Below, piece by piece: positions 7,039 to 51,751 of a stretch of DNA of 64,000 nt (positions are counted from its first letter, which is position 1; each line of letters begins with the position of its first letter). Both the position numbers and the translations under genes were made by a program. The notes under the pieces are model-generated. The model worked only from the letters and a program-made list of their open reading frames with translations. It did no database searches and was not told where the DNA came from. Source of the DNA: a virus; the IMG/VR virus record IMGVR_UViG_3300027730_000009, positions 1 through 64,000 of that record, one strand, 5' to 3'.

Positions 7039-7647
7039 ATGAAAATTATTGTAAATGAATCTCAACTTAAGTTGCTAACAGAACAAATTGAAGGGTTAGA
7101 TGAGTTTAAATTAAAAAGTTTTGCGTCTTACCCCGAAATAATTGAGTTTTGGGATGTTATTGAAAATCATATACAAAAATCAGGTGTAAAAAAAATTGAA
7201 TTGGGTAAACTGCGAATGGGTATTGCAGTTGCACTAATTAATGGTATTATTTTTAGTGAGAATGTTTTTAAACAACCACTACCTTTGTTCTTATTTTCTG
7301 TATTTCATGAATTTGCCCACCAATATCAATTTAAAAAATATGGTAAAGAAAAAATGTTGAAACTTTACACAAATGAAATGTCCATTGGAGAAGCCGCAAA
7401 ATTGATGAAAGAAATTGAATTGGTTGCAGATGAATTTGCAACAAGAAAATTAAGAGAATTACAAAAAAATGGTTTTTTAAAAAATATTATCATACCAAAT
7501 GGTTTTTACAAACAAATGCCCCTCTCAACATTTGAGAAAACTATAGAATACTTAAAATCCCAAATTAAAGACTTGAAACTCACTTCACCTGATGAAATCA
7601 GTAATGTGTTTTATAATTGGTTAAAACTTGAAGTTCAGAATTCTTAG
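7039..7647 (+). CDS. HExxH zincin-like metallopeptidase with leader peptide
   Basis: FHEFAHQYQ...ELVADEFA; MKIIVNESQLKLLTE; TATTTATA at 7026-7033. Confidence 0.65.
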   Translation: MKIIVNESQLKLLTEQIEGLDEFKLKSFASYPEIIEFWDVIENHIQKSGVKKIELGKLRMGIAVALINGIIFSENVFKQPLPLFLFSVFHEFAHQYQFKKYGKEKMLKLYTNEMSIGEAAKLMKEIELVADEFATRKLRELQKNGFLKNIIIPNGFYKQMPLSTFEKTIEYLKSQIKDLKLTSPDEISNVFYNWLKLEVQNS

Positions 7648-8249
7648 TGAACACACTTAATTTTGTGTTCATTCCATTTTTTTGTTGGTTTTTCATTTGG
7701 AAAGTAATAACATTCCCACTTCTTTGATGTTTCGAAATAAATGTGTTTGGTAAAACCCTTAGGTACCATTGCACCTGTTGGGATAACTAAAGAACTCTTA
7801 TCAAAATCCAATATTATCCTTACTGTTAGATTTTCTTTGTCATCCCATTTTCTTTCTTGTTCTTCAAGTAATCTCCATTCCCCCCTGTTTAAGTATTGGT
7901 CTTGTAAGGCACAATTAAGATATGAGAAAGTAGTTTTGAGATTATCCATATTATCTGAGAAAGTAGCTGCGGGAGCTAAGTGTCCTTTATCCCAAATATT
8001 TTTTGCATAATCGTTATGGTCTGAAGTATGAACATTAGGTTCTGTTTTAAAATCCATAGAACCACGATTTACATTTGTAGGTCTATTAATAGAACGATAA
8101 GTGAGTTCAAGTGGTTGTTCTAATGATTGAGAGTAATTTACCTCAAAAATTTGGTTTTTAACTTTAACATCTTTTAAAGCTTGTGCGGAAATAAAAATTA
8201 AACTTACAAGGCTTAATAGTATTAGTGATTTTATTTTAGTCATTTTCAA
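7644..8249 (-). CDS. secreted DNA/RNA non-specific endonuclease (NucA/EndA family)
   Basis: Signal peptide; WDKGHLAPAA, TFSYLNCALQ..LNRGEWRLLE. Confidence 0.9.
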   Translation of the reverse strand: MKMTKIKSLILLSLVSLIFISAQALKDVKVKNQIFEVNYSQSLEQPLELTYRSINRPTNVNRGSMDFKTEPNVHTSDHNDYAKNIWDKGHLAPAATFSDNMDNLKTTFSYLNCALQDQYLNRGEWRLLEEQERKWDDKENLTVRIILDFDKSSLVIPTGAMVPKGFTKHIYFETSKKWECYYFPNEKPTKKWNEHKIKCVH

Positions 8250-9448
8250 TAAATTAATTTATTTTTATTTGAGTATCCTGTGGTTAATAAATAGATGTTA
8301 GTTGAGCCACCTCTTACAGGGTTCGAGATAGTCATTGAAGACTGACCAAGAATTGTAGACTTAAGATTATTTGTGGAGTTTTTGATTGTTGTCCATTCAC
8401 CACTGTTGAACATTCTTACTGAAGGTGCAAGAATAGTATTGTTTTTTAGACCTGTTGTTACACCAAACAAAAGAAAACCATCCGATACAGTAATTCTCCC
8501 GTCATTGTTAATGTCCATTCTATAGTATTCTTTGGAAGTAATAGGAATAACACCTAAAACTAAATCAGACACATACTTAGCATCGGTAACCGATAAGGGA
8601 CTTGTTGTTGTTGGGTTGGGAACTACTATTTGAAACTGATAGTTGTTAATATCTAAACCTGTTGAACCGAAGTTGTAATTTCCAACGGCTGAGGTGTAAA
8701 CCGACCTATTATAATTGAATGTTGTTTGAACAGTTGAAGGTGTAAACTTATAAGAAGTACCTTGAGTTATGGACCATTGCACCGCGTTTTTTCCACCAAC
8801 AGGAACAACTTGTGTTCCTGTGATATTAGTAAGACCTAAAGTGGCGGAATATCCACCACATTGTGGTTTTGATTGAAGGTTAATGTCAATTTCATTTGTA
8901 GTTTCACTTAATACTATTTGCCAAATCACTGAAATACTCCTGCAATCATAAAATGGTACCCTGTTAAAATTAAAAACCATTTTTCTGTTTGGGGAACTTC
9001 CAGTCACATAATAATTCATTTGACCTGAGGAAGGAAACAAATCTTCCCAATCAGCTAAGATAGCATTCTTTGGTGCACTACCATTTGGTAAAAATTGGGC
9101 AACATAACCACTTGTTTGACCAGGTGAAAATCCTATCCAACCATTCGAACTGACATAAAATTGTGTGTAAGTGTTACCAAAATAGGTGAAATTAAAACCA
9201 ATATTAAAGGGTCCTTGAACACAATCATCACAACCGTTTACTGAGGTACCCCCCGCAAAGGCAAAATTAGAATATGTTGGGTTAGTAATTTCATAATTTG
9301 AAATATTTTTTGTTAAAAGTTGTACTTCAACACCTTGCACACCTACCTCATTCCCATCATAGATGTTACCCGAATAGGTAAATTCTTGTCCTTGCAAATG
9401 AAATACAAGAACTAAGAATAAAATACTGGCAACGAATTTTTTCATCAC
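8246..9448 (-). CDS. secreted dockerin-like domain protein
   Basis: Signal peptide; IGFNFTYFGNTY...SSNGWI beta domain; DINNDGRITVSD Ca-binding loop. Confidence 0.7.
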   Translation of the reverse strand: MMKKFVASILFLVLVFHLQGQEFTYSGNIYDGNEVGVQGVEVQLLTKNISNYEITNPTYSNFAFAGGTSVNGCDDCVQGPFNIGFNFTYFGNTYTQFYVSSNGWIGFSPGQTSGYVAQFLPNGSAPKNAILADWEDLFPSSGQMNYYVTGSSPNRKMVFNFNRVPFYDCRSISVIWQIVLSETTNEIDINLQSKPQCGGYSATLGLTNITGTQVVPVGGKNAVQWSITQGTSYKFTPSTVQTTFNYNRSVYTSAVGNYNFGSTGLDINNYQFQIVVPNPTTTSPLSVTDAKYVSDLVLGVIPITSKEYYRMDINNDGRITVSDGFLLFGVTTGLKNNTILAPSVRMFNSGEWTTIKNSTNNLKSTILGQSSMTISNPVRGGSTNIYLLTTGYSNKNKLIY

Positions 9449-9894
9449 AATTTTCCAATCGCGTTTTCTAATGATTTTTTAATTGCAGATGAAAACACTG
9501 ATTTTTCGAATGGTAAATTTTCATCTCTAAGCTCAGCAAAACCCGCTTTAACCGCAAGTTTAGCACTTCCGAATCCTTCATACTTGACACCCTCAATCAC
9601 CACTTCAGTTTTGACCTCTGTAATTTTCTTTTTAATCATAAAAGGACCAATGTTAATACCAACCGAAGGAGCTTTAATTGAAATGATATTAACGAAAACC
9701 GAGGTTCCTTCTTCACACAAACTTAATTTTTCACTGATAAGTTCCTCAGCAATTTGTTTAACTCCAAAGGTAAACCTTTTTGAAGATAAATCAGGGTTTT
9801 CACTTTTATTTTCAACACCTTTAACAGTATAACAAGTTTGTCCAAATAAACCTAAGGACATTATTAAACCAATTGATAATAGGATATTTTTCAT
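9445..9894 (-). CDS. secreted hypothetical protein
   Basis: Signal peptide ending LFG-Q; overlaps both neighbours by 4 bp. Confidence 0.7.
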   Translation of the reverse strand: MKNILLSIGLIMSLGLFGQTCYTVKGVENKSENPDLSSKRFTFGVKQIAEELISEKLSLCEEGTSVFVNIISIKAPSVGINIGPFMIKKKITEVKTEVVIEGVKYEGFGSAKLAVKAGFAELRDENLPFEKSVFSSAIKKSLENAIGKL

Positions 9895-11318
9895 AGTAAT
9901 ATTTTTCCACCTGTTAATATTTGAAATTGGAGAATACTCCCTTGAACTTGATAGACACCTGAAAAACTAACATTGTATTTGAAGTTTTTAGATATCGTAT
10001 AATCCCAAGAACTAAAGGGAACCATCAACCAACCCGAGTCCCACCATTTCCCTTCATAAAATTGAGTAAACGGTGAGTAAACACCAAGAACCAAAAGATT
10101 ACCTGATAAGTTTTTGTTTAATTTAAATGGGTGGAATCCACCACCTACCGCCGAAATATTTGTAAAAGATTCACCACCCAATCCTCCGATAGTAAAATTT
10201 AATCCACCCATAATGGATGTTTTTCCGAATGTTTTTGAATCAAGAGCCGTTGTCGTGTTAAAGAAATTACGCTCAAAATCTATCATTGATGAATTTGCAA
10301 CAATCATAGTGTTTGTTCTTTTTTTATTGGAAAAAGCGCCATATAAGGTTAGATTCGAGTTATTAACTGTTGTGGTATAGTTTAAAAGAACACCTTTAGC
10401 TCTTGTGTTGTTTGTATTAGACTTAGTAACAGACATCGTACCTCTGAACTGATTGGATTTGTCTTCATTAACTCTGATTGCAACAATATCACCAACACCT
10501 ATCAACGAACCAACTTTTGGTTTACCACCACCTTTACCATCTGAACCTGATGATGTGGCTTCTGCGGCATTAGCCACCGAATTAGTCGTACCACCATTAC
10601 CCCCACCCGAAGTTTCATTTTGTACACCAGTAGCATTAGGATTAGTTTGTGCAGATTCTCCCGTTACACCCCGCTGAGTCTGTCCACTTCCCCCTTGAGA
10701 AACCCCAGCTGGTTGGTTATTTGTTCCTCCTTGCGAATTATTTCCTTTTGAAGTTGAAGAACCACCTGATGTATTTCCTCCTTGTTGAGTTCCTCCACCC
10801 TGAGTTGTTGAACCATTTGATGTATTTCCTTGAGTATTATTATTTGTTCCATCTGTTGCCGAATTATTTTGATTATTGGAGGTCGAGTTTGAATTACTAT
10901 TGTTTTTGTTTCCTTCTCTATTGTTTTTTCTTGATGATGTTGAGTTCGATACAGAATTTGCGACAGCATTAGAGGCTGTCATTGTGGAAGAGGCCGTGAT
11001 ACTTGTTAATGTAGAAATTAAATTTTGAGTAATAAACATATTTTGAGAAACTTGTGTATTAGTTAATAACTCATCACATGGTTGGTTAGCGACCGCCGCT
11101 GTGATTTGATTAACCCACAAATCAAAGTTTCCATTAATAAAATCATTAGATGAAAAACTATTGATATTCCCTAAATAGTTTACTGTTATGGCTTGATTGT
11201 TTGTAACTTGGAGAGTTTTAATCTGTCTGGAACAAGGGTCCACATAAGAATATGTGAACCCCTGTCCAAAAATAATTGTGGACATAACAACAAATAATGT
11301 CGTTATTATCCTTTTCAT
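9891..11318 (-). CDS. secreted protein with N/S/G/T-rich linker and probable outer-membrane beta-barrel C-terminus
   Basis: Signal peptide; ~140-aa low-complexity linker; amphipathic strands with aromatic residues at the C-terminus. Confidence 0.55.
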   Translation of the reverse strand: MKRIITTLFVVMSTIIFGQGFTYSYVDPCSRQIKTLQVTNNQAITVNYLGNINSFSSNDFINGNFDLWVNQITAAVANQPCDELLTNTQVSQNMFITQNLISTLTSITASSTMTASNAVANSVSNSTSSRKNNREGNKNNSNSNSTSNNQNNSATDGTNNNTQGNTSNGSTTQGGGTQQGGNTSGGSSTSKGNNSQGGTNNQPAGVSQGGSGQTQRGVTGESAQTNPNATGVQNETSGGGNGGTTNSVANAAEATSSGSDGKGGGKPKVGSLIGVGDIVAIRVNEDKSNQFRGTMSVTKSNTNNTRAKGVLLNYTTTVNNSNLTLYGAFSNKKRTNTMIVANSSMIDFERNFFNTTTALDSKTFGKTSIMGGLNFTIGGLGGESFTNISAVGGGFHPFKLNKNLSGNLLVLGVYSPFTQFYEGKWWDSGWLMVPFSSWDYTISKNFKYNVSFSGVYQVQGSILQFQILTGGKILL

Positions 11319-11354
11319 TGGTTAGTATCTAAAAATAATTTTCGAGGTAACATA

Positions 11355-12068
11355 TTAACTTTTGAATACCCCTTTTTTTATCATTTTTGTAACCACTCTT
11401 ACCGATGCTGTTTCCAAAGCCTTTTTAGTGGATACCCCAACTGTTGAACGATTAAATGCCGGTCCCTGGATATCACCTAAAACACTTGAGGTTTTGATTG
11501 TAATTGCCCTTCCTTGACCGGAACCTGTAATTACCTCTCCTGTTTCAGAATCAACAAATCTAACTTGTAATCCGAGTTGAGTAATTTGTTTAATTGTCAC
11601 ACCTGAAGTTTCAACTACCTCATCTTCACCCACAGAAAAATCGTACACTTCAATGTAAACAAAATACTTGGCAAGTTTAATCTTACCTTTACCGTCCAAT
11701 TTATTTTCAGTAAATCCTTTATTAGATGCTTTGAATTGCTGAACCATTCTTTCCTTGATTTCAAGTTTGTCCTCAGTAAAAACAAATCTCTCAGTTTCTT
11801 CCAAATATTCTAATACAATATTTGTTACACCAAGTCCAACTCTGGCATCACGAAGTTCAGGATACATTTCGTATACTTCATCATTAATGCCAATTTTAAG
11901 AATTTGAATTGGGATTTGGATTGTGTCTTGATATGGTGGCAATTCATCATGTGTTTTTTTTGCCTCAAATCCTGCAGTGTATTCTTCTGTCTGAATTTTT
12001 GCAATCTGACCACTTAAAGATATTGCGCCTAATAAAAAAAGTGATATAAAAATTTTACCAAGGTGCAT
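11355..12068 (-). CDS. CsgG/HfaB-family protein (start likely ATG 12068)
   Basis: GLGVTNIVLEYLEETERFVFTE...AKYFVYIEVYDF...LQVRFVDSETGEVI..G.G pattern; signal peptide. Confidence 0.7.
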   Translation of the reverse strand: MHLGKIFISLFLLGAISLSGQIAKIQTEEYTAGFEAKKTHDELPPYQDTIQIPIQILKIGINDEVYEMYPELRDARVGLGVTNIVLEYLEETERFVFTEDKLEIKERMVQQFKASNKGFTENKLDGKGKIKLAKYFVYIEVYDFSVGEDEVVETSGVTIKQITQLGLQVRFVDSETGEVITGSGQGRAITIKTSSVLGDIQGPAFNRSTVGVSTKKALETASVRVVTKMIKKGVFKS

Positions 12069-12375
12069 CTTCACTCTCACTTTTATCTTCTTTAACAGGT
12101 TTTTCAACAACTTTAGTTTCTTTAATCACTGTTGTACCCCCACCACTTTGATTAGAATTTTGCGATGAGTTGTCGATGTTAAGAACAATCGGGGCGGGTT
12201 GGGTTGACTGTTGAACTGGAGCTACTTCTTCAGTTTTTACATCTTCCTCTATTCCGAAAAGTTGATTGATATGTGTTGCAACATATGCTCCCGCACCTGT
12301 TACGGCAGTTGTCGCTAATCCTATTAGAGTTTTTTTGATTGTTGACATCCCACCTTCTTGAGTTTCCTCTGACAT
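12055..12375 (-). CDS. single-TM small protein
   Basis: Hydrophobic N-terminal helix and low-complexity tail. Confidence 0.65.
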   Translation of the reverse strand: MSEETQEGGMSTIKKTLIGLATTAVTGAGAYVATHINQLFGIEEDVKTEEVAPVQQSTQPAPIVLNIDNSSQNSNQSGGGTTVIKETKVVEKPVKEDKSESEDAPW

Positions 12376-12416
12376 AATAAATTAATTTAGTTTTGGTTTA
12401 TTGTATTCTTTGGCAT

Positions 12417-12443
12417 CTTGAGGTCTCAAATTGAGACCTCAAG
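12417..12443. repeat. 27-nt palindrome / intercistronic stem-loop
   Basis: CTTGAGGTCTCAA-A-TTGAGACCTCAAG; no U tract on the coding strand. Confidence 0.8.
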
Positions 12444-12445
12444 TT

Positions 12446-14341
12446 TTATTCTGTTTTTGTTGTTCTTTCAACAATTTTCTTTTTTTCAGTATTGAGAATT
12501 GCAACATACTCACCTGCCGCTAAAGAACCTAAATCAAAAGTTTGTTCATAAATTCCAATTGGATAAGTTCCCTCAATTACTTCAAAAACTAACTTACCCC
12601 CTAAATCGTAAACAGCTAAAGTCACATTACTTTTTTCATAAAGTTTAAACCTTGCAGTAACTAAACCATCGGTTGGTGTGGGGAATAAAACCATTTGATT
12701 TTTAACCGATATGTCATTGGGGTCCATCTTTAAAACTTGTAATATACCATCAGTTGGGGTGATTTTTAAATCCTTAGCGTTTTGGTCACCAGCAAACTTT
12801 CTTGTAACATATAAAGGACTTTTATTCCAATCGGATTGAAGTTCATTTGCTGTAAAGTTTAAAGTAAAAAGGATTTCACCATTGTTTACTAAATTTTGAT
12901 TGAATGAAGGGTCATATCCCCCCCACTCAACTTCACCATCATTTGTGTTGATAAATGTCAACCAATAAGAACTCTTCAACTCAGTTACCAAAGATTCAAA
13001 TTCCAATAGGTCACTATCATACTTCATAGCTAATTGCAATGAACCCAAATCGATATCATTTGTTTTTAAAGTTACAGGAACACTTACCAAATCCCCCTCA
13101 TCAACTCCCAATTCAGGAAAATTAACTTCGATGGTCTCAAGGTTATTGTCGTATTCGGTAGTAACATCTATAATGTGTAAGTTAGCATTATTGGGATTAA
13201 CTATTTCGATGGGTGTTAAACGAGCTCTTTTGAATCCTGTTCCGTTAGCATCTCCCATCCCTAAAACATAGTATGTTACAGTATCGGAGGTATTTGGTAG
13301 AATTTCGAATGTGAAGTTAGTTACTCCACCTGTTGAAGAAATAAGGTTTGAAGCTGAACCATCAATTATGTTAAACTGTGCCTCGGTGAAGAATTTCACA
13401 TCTGCAACTGAGTTAATCCATGAAGAGAACCTACCTGATATTCTTCCGTAAATTGCATAAACATCGGATATTGTAATCTGACCATCTCCGTTCACATCAG
13501 AAGCGTGGAAATCAAACCCTGTTGGTGTTTGTTGACCAAGTACATATTGATTCACTCTCTGAGCATCGGCAACAGAAATAATGTTCCCAAAGTTTAAAGT
13601 GTCTCCCTGTACAGCAAGTCTAACATCAAACGCTGTAGTATCAATGTTCACATCGTTAAATGATACCCATCCTTGAAGGTTGCTAGTATCAACACTTACA
13701 GAAGTCCAAGTTGAAGTTGTTTTTAACTTTTTCTCAAGAGCAACACTTACATGTTTAGCGGGTGTACCGGTAACATTCATAAAATTTACATGATATGAAA
13801 AAGTACGAGACAATAACTGACCACCAAAATTTGTGAGGTTCAAAGTAAAGTCATTACCCCCTTGTGAGGTCGCAGTCTCACTGAACACATTACCACCATT
13901 AAATGTTAAATTACCCACATTGAAATAGGTGGTTGACAATGCCGCAGTGTGGTTCAATGTCACTTGAAACAATCCACCGTCAGGTATATCAAATGTATTG
14001 AGACTACCGGTATATGTGAGGGTAATGGTAACATATCCCAAAGCAGGATTATCCTGATATTGGAGATATTGTGAAAAAGTTGTGTTCAAAGAAGTTATGG
14101 TATCAACGGACCCAAAAGCTTGATTATCATAAAACAGTCTAAATTGCACTGCTGTGATATCAGTTCCTGAATTATTGTAAAAACAAAGACCAACATTTGT
14201 TTTACCCGCTGTTGATGTACCAATCTGATAAGTGGAATCTATAGTGATATGAGCTCCGTTTAAAGTTGGTATAGGACACGACTGTGAATATAAATTACTC
14301 ACAAGAATTGTCCCGAAAAAAAGAAATAATAATTTTCTCAT
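12446..14341 (-). CDS. cohesin-dockerin-cohesin protein with T9SS (Por secretion) C-terminal domain
   Basis: Signal peptide; cohesin-like ITAVQFRLFYD and VSVPVTL..LGSLQLAMKYDSDLLEF..GEILFTLNF; DVNGDGQITISD; CTD FPTPT..LAVYDLGGKLV..LAAGEYV. Confidence 0.8.
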   Translation of the reverse strand: MRKLLFLFFGTILVSNLYSQSCPIPTLNGAHITIDSTYQIGTSTAGKTNVGLCFYNNSGTDITAVQFRLFYDNQAFGSVDTITSLNTTFSQYLQYQDNPALGYVTITLTYTGSLNTFDIPDGGLFQVTLNHTAALSTTYFNVGNLTFNGGNVFSETATSQGGNDFTLNLTNFGGQLLSRTFSYHVNFMNVTGTPAKHVSVALEKKLKTTSTWTSVSVDTSNLQGWVSFNDVNIDTTAFDVRLAVQGDTLNFGNIISVADAQRVNQYVLGQQTPTGFDFHASDVNGDGQITISDVYAIYGRISGRFSSWINSVADVKFFTEAQFNIIDGSASNLISSTGGVTNFTFEILPNTSDTVTYYVLGMGDANGTGFKRARLTPIEIVNPNNANLHIIDVTTEYDNNLETIEVNFPELGVDEGDLVSVPVTLKTNDIDLGSLQLAMKYDSDLLEFESLVTELKSSYWLTFINTNDGEVEWGGYDPSFNQNLVNNGEILFTLNFTANELQSDWNKSPLYVTRKFAGDQNAKDLKITPTDGILQVLKMDPNDISVKNQMVLFPTPTDGLVTARFKLYEKSNVTLAVYDLGGKLVFEVIEGTYPIGIYEQTFDLGSLAAGEYVAILNTEKKKIVERTTKTE

Positions 14342-14371
14342 ATTCGAATGTAGATTAATGTACTTATAAAT

Positions 14372-14824
14372 ATGAAAAAATTTCTTTGGTTACCAATTTT
14401 TCTATTAATTAATTTAAAAGTTTGTGGGCAAATTAAAATTGACTTGGTAGGTGATACTTGGGTTCCTCAGGTTGAACAAGCATTAGAACTAATTAAAAAT
14501 ACCGACACTAACACTTATAACTTTGTTTTAAAACATTGTAAAAAAATAAGTTTTTGGAACGGAGAGTTCTCTACTGTAGAGGGTAATTACACCATCACAA
14601 TTTCACAGGGTGATATGAAACTAAATTCCGTTGAAAATATTGCATGCATTTTGGTTCATGAATCAAAACACTTGGAAATTATTCAATCAGGAACATCTTT
14701 TTCTTTATTAAAAGAAGAATATATTTGTTATCTATGGGAACTTCAATTCATTGAAATTCTTCAAGGGGAACCTGAGTGGATAAAAGAAAATTGTCTTAAT
14801 ATGATTTCTAAATTAGAACCATAA
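14372..14824 (+). CDS. secreted HExxH metalloprotease-like protein
   Basis: Signal peptide; ILVHESKH...EEYICY. Confidence 0.6.
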   Translation: MKKFLWLPIFLLINLKVCGQIKIDLVGDTWVPQVEQALELIKNTDTNTYNFVLKHCKKISFWNGEFSTVEGNYTITISQGDMKLNSVENIACILVHESKHLEIIQSGTSFSLLKEEYICYLWELQFIEILQGEPEWIKENCLNMISKLEP

Positions 14825-15015
14825 AAAGGGTTACCTGATTCTATTAATCACAATCTTGACACTCAAATACAACATATTTTCTCCACCATTTCGAAAACAT
14901 AGTATTAGGTAAATTATAAACAACTAATTCTGCCAAAACAAATAAACCCCCCACTAGGAGTGAGAAAACAATTAAGTAAATAAACCACATAATCTTTTTT
15001 TTTATAAATATAATC

Positions 15016-15045
15016 AAAAAACCCCCACTCGGAAAGAGTGAGGGC
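15016..15045 (-). terminator. Intrinsic terminator
   Basis: Minus strand CCCTCACTC-TTTCC-GAGTGGGGG plus TTTTTT. Confidence 0.7.
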
Positions 15046-15166
15046 TGTTGGGCTGTAAGGTCAAAGATTTATTTAAAAGAGTTTTGAGATTATTGATGCT
15101 CCTTTGACGACTTTTAAACTATGTTGATTTGTGACTTTTGACATTCCCATCGAAATCAAACATCCA

Positions 15167-15238
15167 CTACTTAGTGTTTAATGTAGGTTGAACCTTCGCC
15201 GCCTCAGCAATACTCAAAAAATACTCATTCCAATTCAT
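15167..15238 (-). pseudogene. possible dCMP deaminase N-terminal remnant
   Basis: MNWNEYFLSIAEAAK resembles the WDEYFM.IA start of dCMP deaminases; stop after 23 codons. Confidence 0.3.
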
Positions 15239-15446
15239 CACAAGAACTTATCTTATAAATCAGACCCTTTGAACCATCGGCGTGAATCTGTTTTTCTTTT
15301 TCATTGACCAAAATTAAATTCGTAAACTTACATTTAAAACGAGGTTCGTATTCTTGAATCAAGATTAAACGAGACACCGTACCAATAAAGAGTTCCCCCC
15401 TTGTTGAGTAATGAATATATCGGTCTCCTTCTTTCCAATCAAACAT
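15225..15446 (-). CDS. hypothetical protein
   Basis: 73-aa ORF with upstream TATATTTG. Confidence 0.55.
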   Translation of the reverse strand: MFDWKEGDRYIHYSTRGELFIGTVSRLILIQEYEPRFKCKFTNLILVNEKEKQIHADGSKGLIYKISSCDELE

Positions 15447-28366: not shown

Positions 28367-28756
28367 TCAGAACAAACCAAGTTTGGATAACCATCTTTCG
28401 AAAAAGTTACCTCTGATACCTAACTCAACCATTTTTTCATAAACACTCGGTCCAGGAATTCCATCCACATCGAGTTTCTCCATTTTTTGGAATTTCTTAA
28501 GTGCCTCAACCGTTGAAGGTCCCCACCTTTCATCAACAACTATTTTTGTTGGTATTTTTTTCATCTTAAAATATTCATTCAAAGCATTTTGAATTTCACG
28601 AACATCTCCCGATGATAGTTGATAACTTGAAAGTTGTTCATTGACCTTATTTTTTAAGTCTTTGACTTTCATTTCTACAACCACTTCTTGTTCTTTAATC
28701 ACATTGTCGATAATACGAGATAGTGCCTTTTCGGTGATACGGATATTTTTTTTCAT
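28367..28756 (-). CDS. peptidoglycan-binding (PG_binding_1) protein with leader peptide
   Basis: GDVREIQNALN..WGPSTVEALKKFQ..LDVDGIPGP; leader MKKNIRITEKAL. Confidence 0.8.
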   Translation of the reverse strand: MKKNIRITEKALSRIIDNVIKEQEVVVEMKVKDLKNKVNEQLSSYQLSSGDVREIQNALNEYFKMKKIPTKIVVDERWGPSTVEALKKFQKMEKLDVDGIPGPSVYEKMVELGIRGNFFERWLSKLGLF

Positions 28757-39342: not shown

Positions 39343-40365
39343 ATGAGTAAGTATGATTTTTTACTTAGAAAATTCAACAATGGTCAATTGGGAAATATTT
39401 TAGGCGCCTTGGATGGTAAGATAGAACCTATTATTGGATTATTAGATAAAAAAGGATTACTTGACCAAATAAATTTGACTTCTAATGATAACGAAGAATA
39501 TCATAACCATGGCTATTATTATATCGCCAAAAACCATCCAGAAAAGTTTTTATCGATGATGGTAGAATTCTTCGATGAAATTTCTGTTGAGGGCGATGGT
39601 AGAACATTTTTAACTATTGCTGACCGAAGTGACCTATCCGAGTTATTTTGTGATAGTATTAGAAATGGTTTGAGTCAAAGCACCGTTGCAAACATTTTGG
39701 ATGGTGAAAATGATTGGAGAAGTTTTGATGTATCATCTGAAAACCTTTATCGGGATGTTATCGAAGATTTAACTCCCAAAAATGAAACTATTTTATATCA
39801 AAGAGTGTTAAAAGATTTTCTGAATGAAAGTGAGAAGATTTATCCTGAAACAGAGCTACTTCAATCAATTGCCGAAGAACAAGGTCATAATGATTTCGTT
39901 GAACTAACCCAAGAGAATATCCCTAAGATTTTCTCAGATGAAGATAGTGCTCTCTCAGTATTGGGTATTTTGGAAGATTTGAGGTCAGATTTACATTCTT
40001 TATACGACAGCGCATACAACGACGCGTATGAACCTGAACTATATGAAAACATTTTCAATTCATTAAGTGATTTTTTTGTTGGCAGAGGTGATTGGGTTTC
40101 AAAACAATCCCCTAAAGACCCAACCAAAACTCAATATGATTTTAGAATTGAAGTCAATGACTTTGTTGGTTTAATGAAAAGGTATTTCGATGAACTCAGA
40201 GGTGAAGGTACCCATACTATTGAAAATTATGGTTATTTTATGAGTGTTCTACAAAATGGTATTGATATGGGTGTATTTGAATGCGTTAGGGTATTCGCAC
40301 CTGACTATGCCGACTGGACCAAAATGAAAGAAAGTTTTAACGAGTTATTTTCAGACTATATCTAA
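39343..40365 (+). CDS. acidic hypothetical protein
   Basis: 340 aa; TATTTATA at 39330-39337. Confidence 0.75.
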
Positions 40366-43300
40366 ATCAGCAAACCTTTTTCTTTCGCCCTATTAAATAA
40401 TTTTTCAGCTCTTTCTTCGAGTTGATTGATTATAGTATCCTGTTCTTTAAGAGCCTCAACACAAATAGCAATTACTTCACGATATCTTACCATGTAAGTA
40501 TTTTGCTCAGAACCAACTACTAATTCAGGGTAAAACTGAAGTATTTCTTGTGCAATGAATCCTATTTCTGGCTCTTCTTTCTTTCCCCAAGCATAATCTT
40601 CTAACCAATTGAATTCAACACCTCTAATTTTCTGTATTGTCTCCAATGCGGATTCAATTTGATGAATGTTTGTCTTTAATCTAAAATCTGAAGGTCCAGT
40701 AGGACCGGGAGCTCCTTGAGCACCCTGTGGTCCAGTTGGACCTTGAGCACCTGTACCAACTTTTTGTCCCTGAGCACCTTGAGGACCTGCAAGAGCTCCA
40801 CCTATGTCACCTTGTGCTCCTTGAGGACCTCCACCTCCTTGAGCACCTTGAGCACCTTGTGGTCCTATTGCCCCTTGTGAACCTTGGGAACCTTGGGGAC
40901 CAACACCTCCTTGAACACCTTGTCCACCGGCAGCACCTTGGAATCCTTGAGCTCCAGCCGCTCCTTGGAAACCTTGACCTCCTTGGGCTCCTTGAGCTCC
41001 TTGAGCTCCAGTCGCTCCTTGGGAACCTTGAAAACCTACAGGTCCTTGAGCTCCTTGAGGTCCTTTAGAACCTTGTGCTCCTTGAGGCCCTTGTGCCCCT
41101 TGTCCTCCTTGAGCTCCTTGAGGTCCTACAGCTCCTTGAGCACCTTGACTTCCTTGAAATCCTTGTCCTCCAGTTGCTCCTTGGAAACCTTGAGCACCTT
41201 GACCTCCTGTCGCCCCTTGGAAACCTTGTCCGCCTTGAGCTCCTTGAGGTCCTACAGCCCCTTGAGCACCTTGAGCACCTTGAAATCCTTGACCTCCTTG
41301 AGCTCCTTGAGGTCCTTTCGCACCTTGAGCACCTTGAGCTCCTTGGAAACCAGTAGTTCCTTGGGCACCTTGTGGGCCAACAGCACCTATATGTCCCGTA
41401 GCTCCCTGAAAACCTTGTCCTCCTTGAGCTCCTTGAGCACCTTCAGGACCGGTTGCTCCTGTAGCTCCTTGGAACCCTTGAGCTCCGACGGCACCTTGTG
41501 AACCCTGTGGCCCTATATGACCTTGAGCACCTTGGAATCCTTGACCTCCTACCGCTCCCTGAGAACCTTGTGGTCCTTGAGCTCCTTGAGCACCTTGGAA
41601 TCCCTGACCCCCTTGAGCACCCTGAGACCCTTGAGCACCTATGGCTCCTTGAGCTCCTTGGAATCCTGTTCCACCTTGAGCCCCTTGCGGACCTAAGGCC
41701 CCTTGAGCACCTACCGCTCCTTGATTCCCTTGTCCTCCTTGTGCACCTTGGGACCCTACTGGACCTTGAGCACCTTGAGCTCCTTGAAATCCTTGACCTC
41801 CCTGCGCTCCTTGGGGACCTTGAGCACCTTGACCTCCTGTCGCCCCTTGAAATCCTTGTCCTCCTTGAGACCCTTGTGGACCTTTTGGTCCTTGGGCACC
41901 TTGAGCTCCTTGAAATCCTTGTATCCCTTGAGCTCCTTGTGAACCAATAGCACCTTGAGCTCCTTGTGCTCCTTGAAATCCTTGACCTCCTTGAGCTCCT
42001 TGTGGTCCAGTTCCACCCTGAGCTCCGACAGCACCTTGAAACCCCTGTCCTCCTTGTGCCCCTTGAGCTCCCTGAGGTCCTTGCGCCCCTTGAGCTCCTT
42101 GGAACCCTTGAGCTCCGACGGCACCTTGTGAACCCTGTGGCCCTATATGACCTTGAGCACCTTGGAATCCTTGACCTCCTACCGCTCCCTGAGAACCTTG
42201 TGGTCCTTGAGCTCCTTGAGCACCTTGGAATCCCTGACCCCCTTGAGCACCCTGAGACCCTTGAGCACCTATGGCTCCTTGAGCTCCTTGGAATCCTGTT
42301 CCACCTTGAGCCCCTTGCGGACCTAAGGCCCCTTGAGCACCTACCGCTCCTTGATTCCCTTGTCCTCCTTGTGCACCTTGGGACCCTACTGGACCTTGAG
42401 CACCTTGAGCTCCTTGAAATCCTTGACCTCCCTGCGCTCCTTGGGGACCTTGAGCACCTTGACCTCCTGTCGCCCCTTGAAATCCTTGTCCTCCTTGAGA
42501 CCCTTGTGGACCTTTTGGTCCTTGGGCACCTTGAGCTCCTTGAAATCCTTGTATCCCTTGAGCTCCTTGTGAACCAATAGCACCTTGAGCTCCTTGTGCT
42601 CCTTGAAATCCTTGACCTCCTTGAGCTCCTTGAGAACCTATTGCACCCTGAGCTCCGATAGCTCCTTGAAGACCGATACCTCCTTGAGCTCCTTGTGCGC
42701 CTATTGCACCTTGTGCTCCTTGAGCCCCTTGAAATCCTTGCCCTCCTTGAGCTCCTTGAGCACCTATCGCTCCTTGTGCACCGATTGCTCCTTGTACTCC
42801 CTGAGGTCCAATTGCTCCTTGTACTCCTTGAGCACCTTGACCACCTACATGACCTTGAACACCCTGACCCCCTTGAGCTCCTTGTGAACCTATTGGGCCT
42901 ATCGCTCCTTGAGCTCCTTGGAACCCTTGTCCACCTTGAGAACCTTGAGAACCTCGGGGACCTTGAGAACCTTCTAATCCCTGAGCTCCTTGTCCTCCTT
43001 GAGCCCCTTGAGCACCTTGAGAACCTATAGCACCTTGAGAACCTTGAGCACCTTGAGCCCCTATCAAACCCTGTGGACCTGGAACTCCTTGGGAACCAGT
43101 TGCACCTTGTGACCCTTGAGCTCCTTGAGGTCCTGTATTTTTATTACCTAACCAACCCTGAGGACCTATAATGTTACCAAAATTATTTTGGATAATATTG
43201 GTTCGAGTGTTACCTGAAATTCTTAATGTAGGTGCCGCGTCTATTATTTTAACAATAGAACCTGAATTAGGTGTCGAATATACTAACCCTGAACTATTGG

Positions 43301-43385
43301 ATAGATAAACCCAATTGGTAACAGTAGACGCGGAATCAAGGAACTCAAATTTTCCATCCAAAGGATAAATTACTATGTCAGCCAC
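40362..43385 (-). CDS. collagen-like fibre protein 1 with C-terminal S74 intramolecular chaperone
   Basis: ~815 aa Gly-X-Y (GAQ/GPQ/GFQ); S-DFRLKTNI...GFIAQE; terminal coiled coil. Confidence 0.9.
41463..42632. repeat. ~540-bp near-exact direct repeat, period 630 bp
   Basis: 41463-42002 matches 42093-42632; shadow ORFs 41703..41942 and 42333..42572 translate identically. Confidence 0.85.
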
Positions 43386-46300
43386 CGATTAATGATTTGA
43401 GTTGATTAAGTTTAGTTTGTATTGATTTCACTCTTGTATTATTTTCTTTTAAAGTTGCAATACCTACGGAAACAAGTAAATCGTATTGTAGATTTTTAAA
43501 ACCATAAATATCAGTGCTCACGACTTCAGGAAAAAGTTTTTCTATTTCTTGAGCAATAAATCCTATACTTTTTCCTTTTAATAGATATTTCTGGTTTGGT
43601 TTATACCCCTCCAATTGAGGAATATTGTCTCTCCATTCGAATCTGACACCCTTCATACCAATTACACGACTTTTTATATTTTCTAATGATTTTACATTAG
43701 TTTTTAGTCGTTTATCTGATGGGGGACCTTGCGCTCCTTGGGCCCCTTGTGGTCCTTTTGGCCCTTGAGCACCTGTACCCCCTCCTATCCCTTGTGCACC
43801 TTGAGGTCCATCTGGTGGTTCCCCACCACCACCAGCTATTCCTTGAGCCCCTTGAGAACCTTGAAAGAATCCATTTGCACCTGTGGCTCCTTGAAAACCT
43901 TGGACATTGCCAGCCCCTTGAGCTCCTTGAGGTCCAGTTGGCCCTGTTGCACCGGGGGTGATATTGGGTTGACCGGGATGTCCAGTCACCCCAAATGAAC
44001 CTTGGGCACCCTGAGGACCACCCTGAGCTCCTACAGCAGATATGGCACCCTGAGCACCAGTAGCCCCTTTAGCACCAATAGCTTCAATTGGGTCAGCTGC
44101 AGCCCCGGGATTACCAGTATCACCAACAGCTCCACCAAATCCCGGAGCACCTGTAGTTACACTTGCAGCCCCATTATTACCTGTCGTTCCTTGAGCACCA
44201 GTAAATCCCGGTGCACCCTGTGTCACCCCTGCAGCTCCGTTGTGACCTGTTGCACCTCCATTACCATTAGCTCCGGTATGTCCTTGGACGGCACCTTGAG
44301 CACCTTGAAATCCTGTGGCACCCTGAGCACCTCCAAATCCCGGTGCACCTTGGGTGGCACCTTGAGCTCCTTGAAACCCTGTAGCTCCTTGTGCACCAGT
44401 AAATCCTAAATCACCCGTCACAGAACTTTGAGCTCCTTGGGCTCCTTGACTTCCTTGACTTCCTTGGGCTCCTACATGCCCTGTTGGTCCTCCTTGAGCC
44501 CCTATTTGTCCTTGGGCTCCTTGTGGACCTGTTGCGCCAGTGTGTCCTTGAACTATCGATGCTGGTCCTTGAGCTCCTTGAGGACCTTTAGTACCTTGAG
44601 CTCCGACGGCTCCTGATACTTCACTTGCGGTCCCACCGTGTCCTGTAGGTCCTTGTGCACCTATACCTCCTGTATGTCCTTGAACAGCTCCTTGGGCACC
44701 TATATGTCCTTGGTCACCTTGAGCACCTTGTGCTCCTTTGGCACCCACAGCTGAAATCGCGTCACCGGCAGCTCCAGTGTGACCTGTAGCCCCTTGGGAA
44801 CCTTGTGCTCCGGTAGCCCCTTGAACCGCATTTTGTGCACCTTGAGCTCCTTGAGAGCCTTGTGAGCCAGTAAATCCCGGCGCTCCTTGTGTTGCCCCTG
44901 CAGCACCGATGTTACCTGTGGCTCCTTGGGAACCTGCAGCTCCCGTATGTCCCTGAACCGCACCTTGTGCTCCCTGAAACCCTTGTGCTCCTTGTGCACC
45001 AAAAATACCATCATGACCAGGGTTGACCCCTTGAGCGCCTTGTTGACCCACGGCACCTTGTGCCCCTATAATACCTCCATGTCCTGTCACTGCACTTTGA
45101 GCTCCTGTTGCACCTTGAGCTCCCTGAGCTCCTTGACCACCGACAGCACCTTGGACAGCTCCTTGAGCTCCAATGTGTCCCTGAGCTCCTTGAGCTCCAA
45201 TAACACCAACATGTCCCTGAACCGCCGATTGAGGTCCTTGAGCTCCTTGAGGACCTTTGGTACCTTGAGCACCCTGAGCACCTGAGACTTCACTTGCGGT
45301 CCCACCGTGTCCTGTAGGTCCTTGTGCACCTATACCACCTGTATGTCCTTGAACAGCTCCTTGAGCACCTATATGGCCTTGGTTACCTTGAGCACCTTGA
45401 GCTCCTTTCGCCCCATCAGTACCTAATCCTGCAGCAGCTCCTGTATTTCCCGTTCCTCCTTGAGCACCTTGTGCTCCGATGTTACCGGTTGGTAATCCTT
45501 GTGCTCCCACGGCTCCTTGAGCACCTTGAAAACCCATTACTCCAGAAGCACCTTGAGTACCACCATCAGCACCGATATTACCTGTAGCTCCTTGGGAACC
45601 TGCAGCTCCCGTATGTCCCTGAACCGCACCTTGTGCTCCCTGAAACCCTTGTGCTCCTTGTGCACCAAAAATACCATCATGACCAGGGTTGACCCCTTGA
45701 GCGCCTTGTTGACCCACGGCACCTTGTGCCCCTATAATACCTCCATGTCCTGTCACTGCACTTTGAGCTCCTGTTGCACCTTGAGCTCCCTGAGCTCCTT
45801 GACCACCGACAGCACCTTGGACAGCTCCTTGAGCTCCAATGTGTCCCTGAGCTCCTTGAGCTCCAATAACACCAACATGTCCCTGAACCGCCGATTGAGG
45901 TCCTTGAGCTCCTTGAGGACCTTTGGTACCTTGAGCACCCTGAGCACCTGAGACTTCACTTGCGGTCCCACCGTGTCCTGTAGGTCCTTGTGCACCGATA
46001 CCACCTGTATGTCCTTGAACAGCTCCTTGAGCACCTATATGGCCTTGGTCACCTTGAGCACCTTGTGCTCCCTTAGCTCCAATATCTAAAAATTCCGATG
46101 CCGCAGCTCCTGTATTTCCAGTTCCTCCTTGAGCACCTTGTGCTCCGATGTTACCGGTTGGTAATCCTTGGGCTCCCACGGCTCCTTGAGCCCCTTGAAA
46201 ACCCATTACCCCAGACGCACCTTGAGTGCCACCATCAGCACCGATGTTACCTGTGGCTCCTTGGGAACCTTCAGCTCCCGTATGTCCCTGAACCGCACCT

Positions 46301-47244
46301 TGTGCTCCCTGAAACCCTTGCGCTCCTTGAGCACCAAAAATACCATCATGACCAGGGTTGACCCCTTGAGCGCCTTGTTGACCTACGGCACCTTGTGCAC
46401 CTTCAAACCCTATATGTCCTTGTACAGCCCCTTGTGAACCGATAGCACCCTGTGCTCCTTGAGCACCGATTGCCCCTTGTGCTCCCTGAACAGCCCCTTG
46501 TGCTCCAACCTCACCTTGTGCCCCTTGGGCACCAATTGAACCTGTTTCACCTGCAACACCACCTTGGGCACCAATACCACCTTGAGCTCCTTGAAAACCT
46601 TGAGCACCTTGTGCACCTATTGTTTCATTTGCCAATCCAACAACTCCCTCACCACCTTGAGCCCCTTGAGCTCCTTGAGCCCCTACGGTAGCCCCTTGAG
46701 CTCCTTGAGCACCTTGTGGTCCTTTAACACCTTGAGCACCTTGTGCTCCTTGTATACCTCCTTGGGCACCTTGAGCTCCGGCACCCCCTTGGGCACCTTG
46801 TGCTCCTTGTGCACCTGACACACCACCTTTAGCACCTTGAGCTCCTGTGTCCCCTTGAATCCCTTTAGCACCTTGAGCTCCTTGAGAACCTTGAGCACCC
46901 TGAGGACCTATAGGTCCAACTGCGCCCTGGGCTCCTTGGCCACCGATAGCACCTTGGAATCCTTGAATATTTAGTGGTGGTCCGACCCATTCACCGATGG
47001 TGTTTATCATCAGGGTTTCACCAGCCCAAACCCCTGATGTAGCATTGGTAATTGCAAGTCCTTTAGAGACTAATCCTGTTGTCGAAATTTCAACAGTGTC
47101 AAATTGGGTTACCGAGGAGAAATTAATTCTGTCCGCCTCCAACATAACCACAACCATACCTGATGATACAGAATCATCAAAAACAAAAAGTGGGTCAAGA
47201 GTTAAGGGAGAACCTTGAGGAAAAATAGTTACATTCAATGCCAT
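43378..47244 (-). CDS. collagen-like fibre protein 2 (regularly interrupted) with S74 chaperone
   Basis: ~1080 aa; six triplets plus one 4-residue unit per period; SDKRLKTNV...GFIAQE. Confidence 0.9.
44560..46400. repeat. tandem repeat, period 666-669 bp, about 2.7 copies (boundaries approximate)
   Basis: Shadow ORFs at 45087/45753 and 45499/46168 are offset by 666 and 669. Confidence 0.75.
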
Positions 47245-47245
47245 A

Positions 47246-50200: not shown

Positions 50201-51751
50201 TCCTTGAGCTCCTTGGCCTCCTTGAGCCCCTTGAGCTCCTTGAGCGCCCTGAGGTCCTAAGGCTCCGGTGTGTCCAGTGGCTCCAGCAGCACTCTGAGAA
50301 CCTTGAGACCCTTGTGGTCCTCTTGCCCCGATTTCTCCAGTAGCCCCTTGTGCTCCTTGGGACCCTTGAGCACCTTGGGGTCCTATGTTTCCCTGAGCAC
50401 CTTGGGCACCTTCACCACCTTGTGCTCCTTGAGCACCCTGTGGACCAACTAATCCTTGAGCCCCTTGAGCCCCTTTTGAGCCTTGTGACCCTTGTGGCCC
50501 GAAAGGTCCTACTAATCCTTGGGCACCTTGTCCTCCTTTTGCTCCTTGTACCCCTTGAGCTCCTTGGGGACCCGCAGCACCTTGAGCACCTTGAGAACCT
50601 ATTCCTCCTTGAGCACCTTGTGCCCCTTGAGGCCCGATAGCACCTGTGGCTCCTTGGAAACCCTCGGCACCTTGTGCTCCGATGTTACCCGTGGAGCCGA
50701 TTGCCCCCTCAGAACCTTGAGCACCAGTAGTTCCCTCAGCACCTTGAGCACCAGTAGGTCCTATTGCTCCTTGAACACCCTGAGGCCCTTTGGGACCTTG
50801 TGCACCTTGAGCACCAACAGCAGCATTTAGAGTATTGTTGTAATCCAAAAATTCGATACCAAAAAACATTTTGATATCTTGATTCACATTAGTGCTTCCT
50901 GAAGTAAAAGATATCCCAAAATCCCAATAGTTACCAAACAAGGATGTACTAGTAACATTATAGAGATAATTACCATCGAGAGGTCCATCAACATCGAGTA
51001 ATTCAACTCTTAAATCCCAGTTATTATCAATTTGAGAAAATATACTACTTAAATCAACAAGTCCAGCTCCTTGAGGTGTAGTTCCTCCTGAAACTGAGAC
51101 TGACATTGTGTTAACACCAGTCACTGTTGTGTCACTATTAGTCGCCGCAACCCTTAGAGCCCCATCAAAAGTCGAGTCAGCTACCCATGTCCACCAATAT
51201 GGACCATAAATTGTTGGTTGACCACCACCTTGATTTCCTTGTGGTCCTTGAGCACCTTGCGCACCTTGGGCACCAATGGCACCCTGAGCACCTGTAATAT
51301 TGGTACCAGGTCCTGTCCAATTTCCTGTACCATCCAAGACTTGTGTACCTCCGACCGATAAAAAGTTAGTGACCGTAAGGGTTGAAAACACATAAACCTC
51401 AGGAGAACATCCTCCCAAGTTTGATGAAAGAACATCACTAATATCTGTTACTGTACTTGGTCTTACACAACGATAATAAGTTAGACCCGAAGGAACATTA
51501 ATAGTTTCTAATACCCCTGTACTACAATTACGATATGTCGCAACCCCCGTTCCTCCACCAGTTGCCAAAAATGAAAAGTAATCACAATTTTCTTGGGGTG
51601 CAAATAAAACTTGGTTTTCAAATAACAAAGAGGCATCATATAACACCAAAATTTTGAACTTAAAACTTGGGTCAGTCTCAAATAATATTTCAGGAATGTT
51701 TCCAGGTCTTGAACGTATATTACTTGGAAATATTGTTAGATTCTTTGCCAT
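47246..51751 (-). CDS. collagen-like fibre protein 3 with inserted globular domain, Cys-rich domains and S74 chaperone
   Basis: Main Gly-X-Y run 50815-47822; Cys-rich segment before SDARLKTNV...GFIAQE; TATTTATA at 51775-51768. Confidence 0.9.
48560..50380. repeat. tandem repeat, period 630-633 bp, about 3 copies (boundaries approximate)
   Basis: Shadow ORFs at 48760/49390/50023 and 49037/49670. Confidence 0.75.

Follow-up and report, generated by a model that had tools for sequence, protein, structure and literature searches.

Phage genes whose products reach the surface of the host cell are few, and most of them encode single proteins. The nearest precedent for a surface or secretion module borne by phages is the type VIII secretion system (T8SS) module of Pelagiphages, in which CsgG, CsgF and CsgA/B are encoded together with FecR and an adenylate cyclase (PMC9599517). 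Here we describe an operon that comprises seven to nine genes and is present in the first 64 kb (positions 1 to 64,000; hereafter, the window) of the 92-kb IMG/VR virus record IMGVR_UViG_3300027730_000009. In the window the operon occupies positions 7644–14341 of the minus strand, where genes G, F, E, D, C, B and A are tightly packed, and a further gene, H, starts divergently beside A. The parts that it encodes usually belong to cellulosomes, curli, autotransporters and the secretion system of type IX (T9SS), the last being confined to Bacteroidota. The operon lies on hundreds of viral contigs and has thousands of unannotated homologues. We interpret it, with a probability of roughly 0.45, as an operon specific to phages that sends every one of its products to the envelope of the Flavobacteriia cell under infection and that, in a manner linked to lysis, displays multivalent lectins.

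Like the Pelagiphage module, the operon is multigene and conserved in gene order, contains a CsgG-family protein, is predicted to change the surface of an infected cell of marine or freshwater origin and is widespread in metagenomes, the functions being predicted ones in both cases (PMC9599517). It differs from that module in having neither CsgF nor a curlin-repeat subunit, and in that its CsgG-like protein lacks a lipid anchor and, by alignment, has hairpins of lesser length. It goes beyond it in encoding cohesin and dockerin modules, a T9SS C-terminal domain (CTD), lectins and an autotransporter-like barrel; its hosts belong to Bacteroidota, not to SAR11, and a counterpart among cellular operons was not found. 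In the literature searched, no description was found of this gene combination or of gp012–gp019 of Flavobacterium phage vB_FspM_immuto (hereafter, immuto), which make up the same set.

Signal peptides and transmembrane (TM) helices were judged by eye from the sequence. All of the exported products, that is, all except B, begin with a hydrophobic leader followed by Gln, and in the aligned D, E, A and F families this Gln hardly ever varies. Substrates of signal peptidase I in Bacteroidota show this pattern. An earlier reading of the window, made by a model from the letters and the open reading frames (ORFs) and referred to below as the original prediction, had described seven co-oriented genes, several of them overlapping, with a divergent HExxH gene, all of whose products carry a signal peptide or a TM anchor. 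The ORF coordinates confirm the layout, most of the genes overlapping, the leaders agree with the second statement, and its domain calls proved essentially right.

Putative scaffold protein A and its proposed lectin partner F

The product of gene A (A631) comprises, in this order, a signal peptide, cohesin 1 (residues ~21–178), a beta-sandwich, a dockerin-like module (246–304), an X domain (305–375), cohesin 2 (381–550) and a T9SS type-A CTD (552–625). When the whole protein was scanned against Pfam, residues 253–297 matched Dockerin_1 (PF00404; E = 1.4e-5, 25.6 bits against a gathering threshold of 22.9); PDB dockerins also match this module, at E values of 0.004–0.04. Residues 552–625 matched Por_Secre_tail (PF18962; E = 7.9e-8, 32.9 bits against 27), and the same CTD scored 22.0 bits against TIGR04183 of NCBIfam, just below the cut-off of 23. 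Cohesin 2, scanned alone as the segment 381–550, matched Cohesin (PF00963; E = 1.6e-7, 32.1 bits against 24.1). In the window protein, the N-terminal domain had no Pfam match, Cohesin included, and the corresponding domain matched Cohesin in 27 of 40 orthologues at E ≤1 (best 3.9e-6); its hhalign comparison with cohesin 2 was weak (probability 17%), and a profile search of PDB sequences with this domain retrieved no cohesin. The cohesin–dockerin–cohesin–CTD architecture of the original prediction is thus borne out by Pfam, with cohesin 1 recognized through the 27 orthologues. Since the CTD stands together with an N-terminal Sec signal, as in T9SS type-A cargo, A would be carried out of the cell by the host T9SS.

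The product of gene F (F400) consists of a signal peptide, a split beta-sandwich into which a variable domain is inserted, and then the dockerin-like and X module as in A, with no CTD. The stretch common to F and A covers ~210 residues (the beta-sandwich, the dockerin-like module and the domain that follows) and includes the DxNxDGxITxSD loop (BLASTP E = 1e-9), in accordance with the earlier claim of a second protein having the same dockerin-like module with similar flanks. Window F has no Dockerin_1 match of its own, though the module is common to A; Dockerin_1 was also matched by two members of the set that was scanned for the F inserts. In both proteins, only the second repeat holds a canonical calcium loop (DVNGDGQITISD in A and DINNDGRITVSD in F), and the first is degenerate, with its helix kept and its Asp/Asn ligands gone, so that the two loops of an F-hand dockerin are not both present.

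The inserted domain of F differs from phage to phage. Among 38 sequences of the F family scanned against Pfam, it matched Lectin_C in 20, Laminin_G_3 (ConA-like) in 11 and PA14 in four, with pentaxin, Ig_7 and GEVED found once each; in immuto, the F counterpart gp013 has a Lectin_C match with an E value of 3e-15. From this swapping of lectin, ConA-like and PA14 inserts among orthologues, F is read as a constant docking module with an exchangeable, probably sugar-binding, head. The insert of window F400 itself (~55–245) matched no Pfam family; it has an FxFxFYGxxY...SSNG-type motif, which may point to a resemblance to NIDO-like domains.

A second line of evidence is provided by the division of A in some of the phages. 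In immuto, A is represented by two adjacent genes, gp014 (cohesin and dockerin-like module) and gp015 (cohesin, matching Pfam Cohesin at E = 5.9e-9, and CTD), and the same split into a 363-residue and a 243-residue protein occurs in loci L061, L006 and L074 as in immuto. That the adaptor and anchor halves of A are adjacent separate genes in immuto-like phages allows a Rosetta-stone argument for their interaction, and this fusion and fission constitutes independent genomic support that both act together. A surface assembly through cohesin and dockerin modules is accordingly the best-supported part of our interpretation. Of the modular surface lattice or channel in the original prediction, the lattice part is favored by the split A genes and the swapped lectins of F; the channel part is weak, as described below.

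The arrangement resembles a cellulosome in that an anchor (cohesin plus surface signal), an adaptor (cohesin plus dockerin) and a cargo (dockerin plus variable domain) can be told apart. In contrast to cellulosomes, the cargo of the phage module consists of lectins instead of glycoside hydrolases, the surface signal is a T9SS CTD and not of the SLH or sortase kind, there is only one canonical calcium loop, the whole is phage-encoded and the pairing is putative. Surface lectin adhesins exported by the T9SS occur in Flavobacterium, such as RemA of F. johnsoniae, and cell aggregation is a known outcome. As with RemA, a lectin function would be put on the surface through a type-A CTD, with the difference that lectin and CTD are here on separate phage proteins, presumably joined by the cohesin–dockerin contact.

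Phage specificity and linkage to lysis genes

The source of the window is a phage, as the original prediction had assumed: the IMG/VR record carries, within the window, genes for a polymerase of the Y family, for an RNA ligase/tail-fibre attachment catalyst and for glycosyltransferases, along with three collagen-repeat fibres that end in Peptidase_S74. From the CheckV completeness of 31% for a record of 92 kb, the source phage is probably a jumbo phage. Synteny was compared over 86 loci, in which the identity of C ranges from 50 to 98%. C/E are present in all 86, A/F in 85, B in 78 and D in 77, with E alone counted in 72, and the order A-B-(t)-C-D, then F/E and H, is fixed across these loci (t denoting a 2-TM protein), being kept even across phages whose C proteins are only 50–65% identical. 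The co-conservation of the genes, which had been put forward as a check on the original prediction, is therefore strong. The cultured representative is immuto, a 160-kb phage grown on Flavobacterium sp. LMO8, which has the whole set as gp012–gp019.

In the IMG/VR scan, C was found on 423 contigs. Among 185,579 species genomes there were only five matches to C, all on contigs of metagenome-assembled genomes (MAGs), and the two large ones (254 and 248 kb), which are the two of the five that were checked, carry a large terminase (TerL), as do a 254-kb and a 270-kb viral record having C. When 400 further genomes from the family of the host were searched with the C profile, nothing was found at E 1e-5, and immuto was the only one with C among 50,697 GenBank phage records. 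The module is thus phage-specific.

The linkage of the module to lysis genes in the relatives of the window phage was not part of the original prediction. A GH19-like endolysin with PG_binding repeats, assigned from sequence motifs, lies within 8 kb of the module in 39 of the 86 loci, often as the gene that directly precedes A or follows the end of the module, and sometimes paired with another 2-TM protein, and a conserved 2-TM protein of holin-like topology is encoded inside the operon in 61 loci. Membership of these 2-TM proteins in a holin family was considered and rejected for want of a convincing match, the one weak PHROG holin match (E = 0.007) belonging to a different small protein; their holin identity is consequently a matter of topology and position only. 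Near the module in the window, this linkage is absent: neither the immuto endolysin nor the GH19-like endolysin of the relatives was found in the 92-kb record. An ORF at 28367–28756 on the minus strand, 14 kb from the module, contains PG_binding_1 at 28430–28612 (E = 2e-14) and is a candidate part of the endolysin of the window phage.

CsgG-like proteins, predicted barrel D, putative tether B and neighboring genes

Direct scans of B, C, D, E and H against Pfam, NCBIfam and PHROG gave nothing, and no module protein had a match in PADLOC. The ORF list starts C with TTG at 12110, but the homologues have 237 residues, by which the ATG at 12068 is the likely start. Nearly all of the 5913 homologues of C are unnamed. 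A profile of the phage family recovered 275 cluster representatives among 1.84 billion, and an alignment of 36 sequences was composed of close family members and full-length distant relatives obtained with this profile. In this set, PF03783 (CsgG) was matched by 15 of the 36 sequences (best E = 1.9e-17) and LpoB by six; hhalign of the alignment against Escherichia coli CsgG gave a probability of 92.8% (E = 3.9e-7) over 223 columns. The named ESM Atlas neighbors of C are all CsgG/HfaB, and the top 24 hits of a Foldseek search of the PDB with the C model, a model of low confidence, were all CsgG, while PDB sequence searches with the C-family alignments did not recover CsgG. The membership of C in the CsgG/HfaB family, claimed in the original prediction, is supported by the profile relatives, the hhalign result and the ESM Atlas neighbors.

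It is less probable that C forms the outer-membrane channel of CsgG that was also envisaged there. Its leader is of the signal-peptidase-I type and ends in SLSGQ, having no Cys and hence no lipobox, whereas distant relatives carry an LxGC lipobox. By hhalign, C is shorter than CsgG by ~6 residues in the TM1 hairpin and ~10 in the TM2 hairpin as the alignment places these gaps, and its TM1-equivalent segment is rich in Asp/Glu and thus more charged. In addition, no module protein matched Curlin_rpt, CsgF or CsgE in Pfam or NCBIfam, in line with the earlier remark that no curlin gene is present. Given the missing lipobox, hairpins that are shorter in the alignment and the lack of curlin or CsgF as a partner, C looks unlikely to be a curli-type channel. 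Moreover, distant relatives of C (P0197, P0202, P0206, P0220 and P0253) are fused to caspase-like or Ser/Thr kinase domains, which suggests a sensor-type domain for periplasmic binding or oligomerization instead of a pore. Two types of fusion are seen, namely, a lipoprotein CsgG-like domain followed by a caspase-like domain, and a Ser/Thr kinase followed by a TM helix and a CsgG-like domain.

The product of gene E (E149), described in the original prediction merely as a small secreted protein, is indeed predicted to be exported, is shorter than C and has two conserved Cys residues. Since hhalign of the E family against the C-family alignment gave a probability of 97.4% (E = 9.7e-12) and BLAST clustering joins C and E, it can be identified by homology as a second, shortened CsgG-like protein, paralogous to C. 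E was also tried as a CsgF and rejected, the probability of the E family against E. coli CsgF being 0.07%. At positions 2746–2973 of immuto (locus L002, NC_055915), ~3.5 kb from its module, a YcfL-like protein is encoded, possibly by coincidence; in E. coli, ycfL adjoins lpoB, and the fold of LpoB is related to that of the CsgG-like proteins of the module.

The product of gene D (D475) is composed of a signal peptide, a small N-terminal domain with two invariant Cys residues (21–81), a long helix (82–114), 153 disordered residues and a C-terminal barrel predicted to lie in the outer membrane (271–473). None of its 1168 homologues is annotated. AlphaFold2, run with 50 homologues, placed 12 strands at 271–473 with a predicted local distance difference test (pLDDT) score of ~60–87 per 10-residue block, giving shape to what had been described as a linker plus putative barrel. 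The disordered segment consists to 78% of N/Q/S/T/G, and in the homologues it has 89–298 residues of like composition. VIA-align ranked NalP at the top (Z 19.9, rmsd 3.8, 229 residues aligned over model residues 80–475), followed by EspP (Z 18.4), AaaA, EstA and AIDA-I, with FapF at Z 14.3. Foldseek returned the 12-stranded barrels NanC, KdgM, FapF and NalP, the target-normalised TM-score of the D barrel against KdgM/NanC being 0.63–0.71, and one ESM Atlas neighbor of D is OmpK/Tsx. As the alignment with NalP spans residues 80–475, the helix of D is modelled inside the pore.

With its 12-stranded C-terminal barrel, N-terminal domain and modelled pore helix, D is thus similar to the type Va autotransporters NalP, EspP, AIDA-I and EstA (Z 15.5–19.9). 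Unlike these, it has a passenger of only ~60–90 residues and a 153-residue disordered stretch between the helix and strand 1, so that neither the large passenger nor the helix directly before strand 1 that characterize type Va is present, and its barrel is minimal, with ~200 residues as in KdgM. In the absence of any Pfam match, including Autotransporter (PF03797), and in view of the tiny passenger and the helix that is not contiguous with strand 1, D appears from its model to be autotransporter-like in fold and not a member of the autotransporter family.

The product of gene B (B106) has an acidic MSEET head, one TM helix and a ~65-residue low-complexity tail rich in Pro/Ala/Asn/Gln/Lys/Glu, which is read as unstructured from this composition, and it ends in a Trp that is conserved in 60 of 60 distinct homologues.

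The two remaining genes are less constant companions. G encodes an Endonuclease_NS (DNA/RNA non-specific endonuclease) protein (PF01223; E = 1.1e-20, 74.7 bits against 23) of the NucA/Serratia type with a leader, the catalytic His motif DKGH and a further match to the nuclease phrog_14168. The NucA-type nuclease of the original prediction is therefore real, but, with a nuclease no farther than 8 kb from the module in just 24 of the 86 loci, it is an accessory and not a core member. The secreted HExxH protein H, which had likewise been foreseen as divergent, is co-located in 50 of the 86 loci, being divergent in the window and co-directional downstream in other lineages. A different HExxH protein (FHEFAH; 202 residues, no leader) is encoded at 7039–7647 on the plus strand, convergent on the nuclease gene; it has a weak PADLOC match to CapP (E = 0.003) and adjoins the module only in the closest relatives (L008 and L026–L028). 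Four lineages have an extra protein of ~270 residues inside the module (L003:11504–12325, L083:6148–6951, L045 and L084), its gene separating F from E in three of them and D from E in the other. In this protein, a leader and a start rich in Pro/Ala precede a beta-rich body that ends in F; it has no Pfam or PHROG match and looks from its sequence like a second outer-membrane barrel.

Coordinates of the operon and associated features in the window.
Feature	Position	Strand	Basis
A631, putative scaffold	12446-14341	-	ORF and Pfam
B106, predicted bitopic inner-membrane protein	12055-12375	-	ORF and homologue alignment
C237, CsgG/HfaB-family protein	11355-12068	-	ORF, profile homology and hhalign
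D475, predicted barrel protein	9891-11318	-	ORF and AlphaFold2 model
E149, putative short exported CsgG-like paralogue	9445-9894	-	ORF and hhalign to C family
F400, lectin-partner family protein	8246-9448	-	ORF and BLASTP to A
G201, exported non-specific endonuclease	7644-8249	-	ORF and Pfam Endonuclease_NS
H150, small exported HExxH protein	14372-14824	+ (divergent)	ORF and motif
Perfect 12-bp palindromic hairpin	12417-12443		Sequence, A-B intergenic gap

The genes overlap by four bases at the G/F, F/E and E/D junctions and by 14 bases at C/B; the operon has one gap of 36 bases and one of 70 bases, and H starts 30 bases upstream of A. The 70-base gap, between A and B, contains the 12-bp perfect palindrome with its 3-nt loop. 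Having no T-run on the minus strand, this hairpin is not a canonical terminator of the operon and may be an RNA-stability or processing element; a T-run follows it on the plus strand alone, and no gene of that strand terminates there. Two strong terminator-like hairpins of 11 and 9 pairs, each with a T-run, are located at 14947–15046 on the minus strand, downstream of a 73-residue ORF (15225–15446), and close the upstream unit before the divergent H/A pair. A scan for sigma-70-type promoters found no excess (38 sites against 36.6 in shuffled sequence). Elsewhere in the window, the collagen-repeat proteins mentioned above (1007, 1288 and 1501 residues) are encoded in succession at 40362–51751 on the minus strand, each with a C-terminal Peptidase_S74 intramolecular chaperone, in a region whose GC content is 46–57% against ~34% elsewhere.

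Possible roles of the operon

The occurrence of this exported set mostly beside lysis genes suggests that the cell surface is remodelled by the phage during infection. Our proposal starts from what is established here, namely, the identities of the domains, the co-conservation of the genes and their specificity to phages, the fusion and fission of A, the swapping of lectins and the linkage to lysis genes; the export routes, the cohesin–dockerin pairing, the topology of D, the timing and the biological role are inferred. A would be exported by the Sec pathway and then moved across the outer membrane by the host T9SS via its type-A CTD, presenting two cohesins and one dockerin-like module. F would dock on A either in the periplasm, riding out with it, or at the surface; because A has both types of module, it could also chain with itself. 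The outcome would be a multivalent lectin coat or lattice that is held on the cell or shed. The tether B (together with the 2-TM protein in most relatives), the periplasmic CsgG/LpoB-fold proteins C and E and the barrel D may constitute a trans-envelope set, in which flexible tethers reach out from either membrane and the CsgG-fold domains lie between them; spanning the periplasm, this set would hold the assembly in place or service it. As holin and endolysin genes accompany the operon, its action is probably late, around lysis. Surface glycans of the host type would be bound by the lectin coat, which could hide the receptors of the dying cell and of its debris or, alternatively, glue infected cells and debris to neighboring hosts or particles.

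Several points weigh against this proposal. With one canonical calcium loop in the dockerin-like module, cohesin binding is not assured. Neither F nor the split adaptor carries any known outer-membrane export signal, and such CTD-less partners may cross the outer membrane bound to the CTD protein. The AlphaFold2 model of C obtained with 31 close homologues was poor (pLDDT 49), the helix-in-pore placement of D concerns residues with pLDDT values of 62–69, and the roles assigned to B, C, D and E are guesses. Finally, the window phage itself has no 2-TM protein near the module, and its module is not beside an endolysin gene.

The linkage to lysis genes could also be taken to mean that the operon is a device for lysis and egress, in which B, the 2-TM protein, C, E and D substitute for spanins in Flavobacteriia phages, a tether in the inner membrane being joined through the periplasm to a barrel in the outer one, and breach the outer membrane after the endolysin has acted, A, F, G and H being release aids for debris coating, DNA clearing and proteolysis. 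Such a device would fit the GH19-like endolysin genes, often the first or last of the string, and the 2-TM genes with holin-like topology, those not inside the operon adjoining the endolysin, and no canonical spanin was noticed in these loci. As in Rz/Rz1, the two-component spanins of phages that infect Gram-negative bacteria, the genes lie beside holin and endolysin genes, and there are an inner-membrane subunit with the topology of an i-spanin (B, with its N-terminal TM helix, periplasmic tail and invariable terminal Trp) and a candidate outer-membrane partner (D). In contrast to spanins, however, B has no coiled-coil, the operon includes no small outer-membrane lipoprotein as o-spanin partner, no genes are embedded and many additional proteins are present. 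Because, furthermore, the 2-TM proteins have no convincing holin-family match, the module persists in the window phage and in immuto although no endolysin or 2-TM gene adjoins it there, and lysis does not need cohesin, dockerin, lectin and CTD parts, we regard an egress device as rather unlikely. A combined scheme for egress and receptor masking, in which large Flavobacteriia phages would hijack the host T9SS for a cohesin–dockerin lectin lattice on the dying cell, accompanied by a new trans-envelope complex (the tether, the two CsgG-fold proteins and the barrel with its long disordered loop) that replaces the spanins and couples outer-membrane rupture with debris coating, a system with no cellular counterpart, is of fairly low probability. 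Superinfection exclusion on the live cell, with the lectin lattice hiding receptors, a periplasmic nuclease destroying incoming DNA, the HExxH protease trimming receptors and C, D, E and B blocking injection, would agree with the envelope direction of all products, with lectin domains that vary among phages much like receptor-binding proteins and with the recurrence of the nuclease and the HExxH protein as neighbors. It is nevertheless unlikely, considering the lack of any PADLOC match in the module proteins and of similarity to Sie, Imm, Sp and Llp proteins in the PHROG and NCBIfam libraries searched, the low frequency of the nuclease and the linkage to late-type lysis genes, which speaks against an early function.

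Secretion of the curli-like (type VIII) kind, by which an oligomeric channel of C, perhaps with E, would export the N/Q/S/T/G-rich segment of D or the CTD-less dockerin proteins, is suggested by the homology of C to CsgG over its whole length, CsgG being the closest solved fold, by the working-looking CsgG–CsgF–CsgA/B modules of Pelagiphages (PMC9599517), by the composition of the D segment and by the presence of FapF, the amyloid exporter of Pseudomonas, among the structural neighbors of D. We consider it improbable, since C has no lipobox and its hairpin segments are shorter in the alignment, the first of them being rich in Asp/Glu, the module proteins include no Curlin_rpt, CsgF or CsgE, the distant relatives of C are sensor-type domains, periplasmic or extracellular, joined to a kinase or a caspase, and the score of FapF (Z 14.3) is far lower than that of the autotransporters (19.9). 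Even less can be said for the scavenging of DNA or nutrients, with the nuclease digesting extracellular or host DNA and the D barrel importing the products like Tsx, KdgM and NanC: G is an exported non-specific nuclease and D resembles the 12-stranded specific porins, with OmpK/Tsx as one neighbor, but the nuclease is missing from most loci, autotransporter barrels fit D better than porins do, and the cohesin, dockerin, lectin and CTD parts as well as B, C and E would be left unexplained, making this role very improbable. That an ordinary bacterial operon was recently acquired by one phage, a case raised with the original prediction, or that a bacterial region was mis-called viral, is scarcely credible. 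The part families are common in bacteria and five matches lie in MAG bins; the 423 viral contigs, the terminase genes on the two large MAG contigs, the negative result for 400 host-family genomes and the gene order kept at 50–65% identity of C refute this capture for practical purposes.

Returning to the lysis-linked display of multivalent lectins, if this interpretation is true, the operon would be the first cohesin–dockerin system in viral use and would include the first phage-encoded T9SS cargo. It could also bear on how the outer membrane is handled at lysis by Bacteroidota phages, no spanin-type device being evident in these loci. As immuto, grown on Flavobacterium sp. LMO8, carries the whole module, these questions are directly testable. 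Finally, the swapped lectins would then represent a second, non-virion record of the host glycan specificity of these phages.

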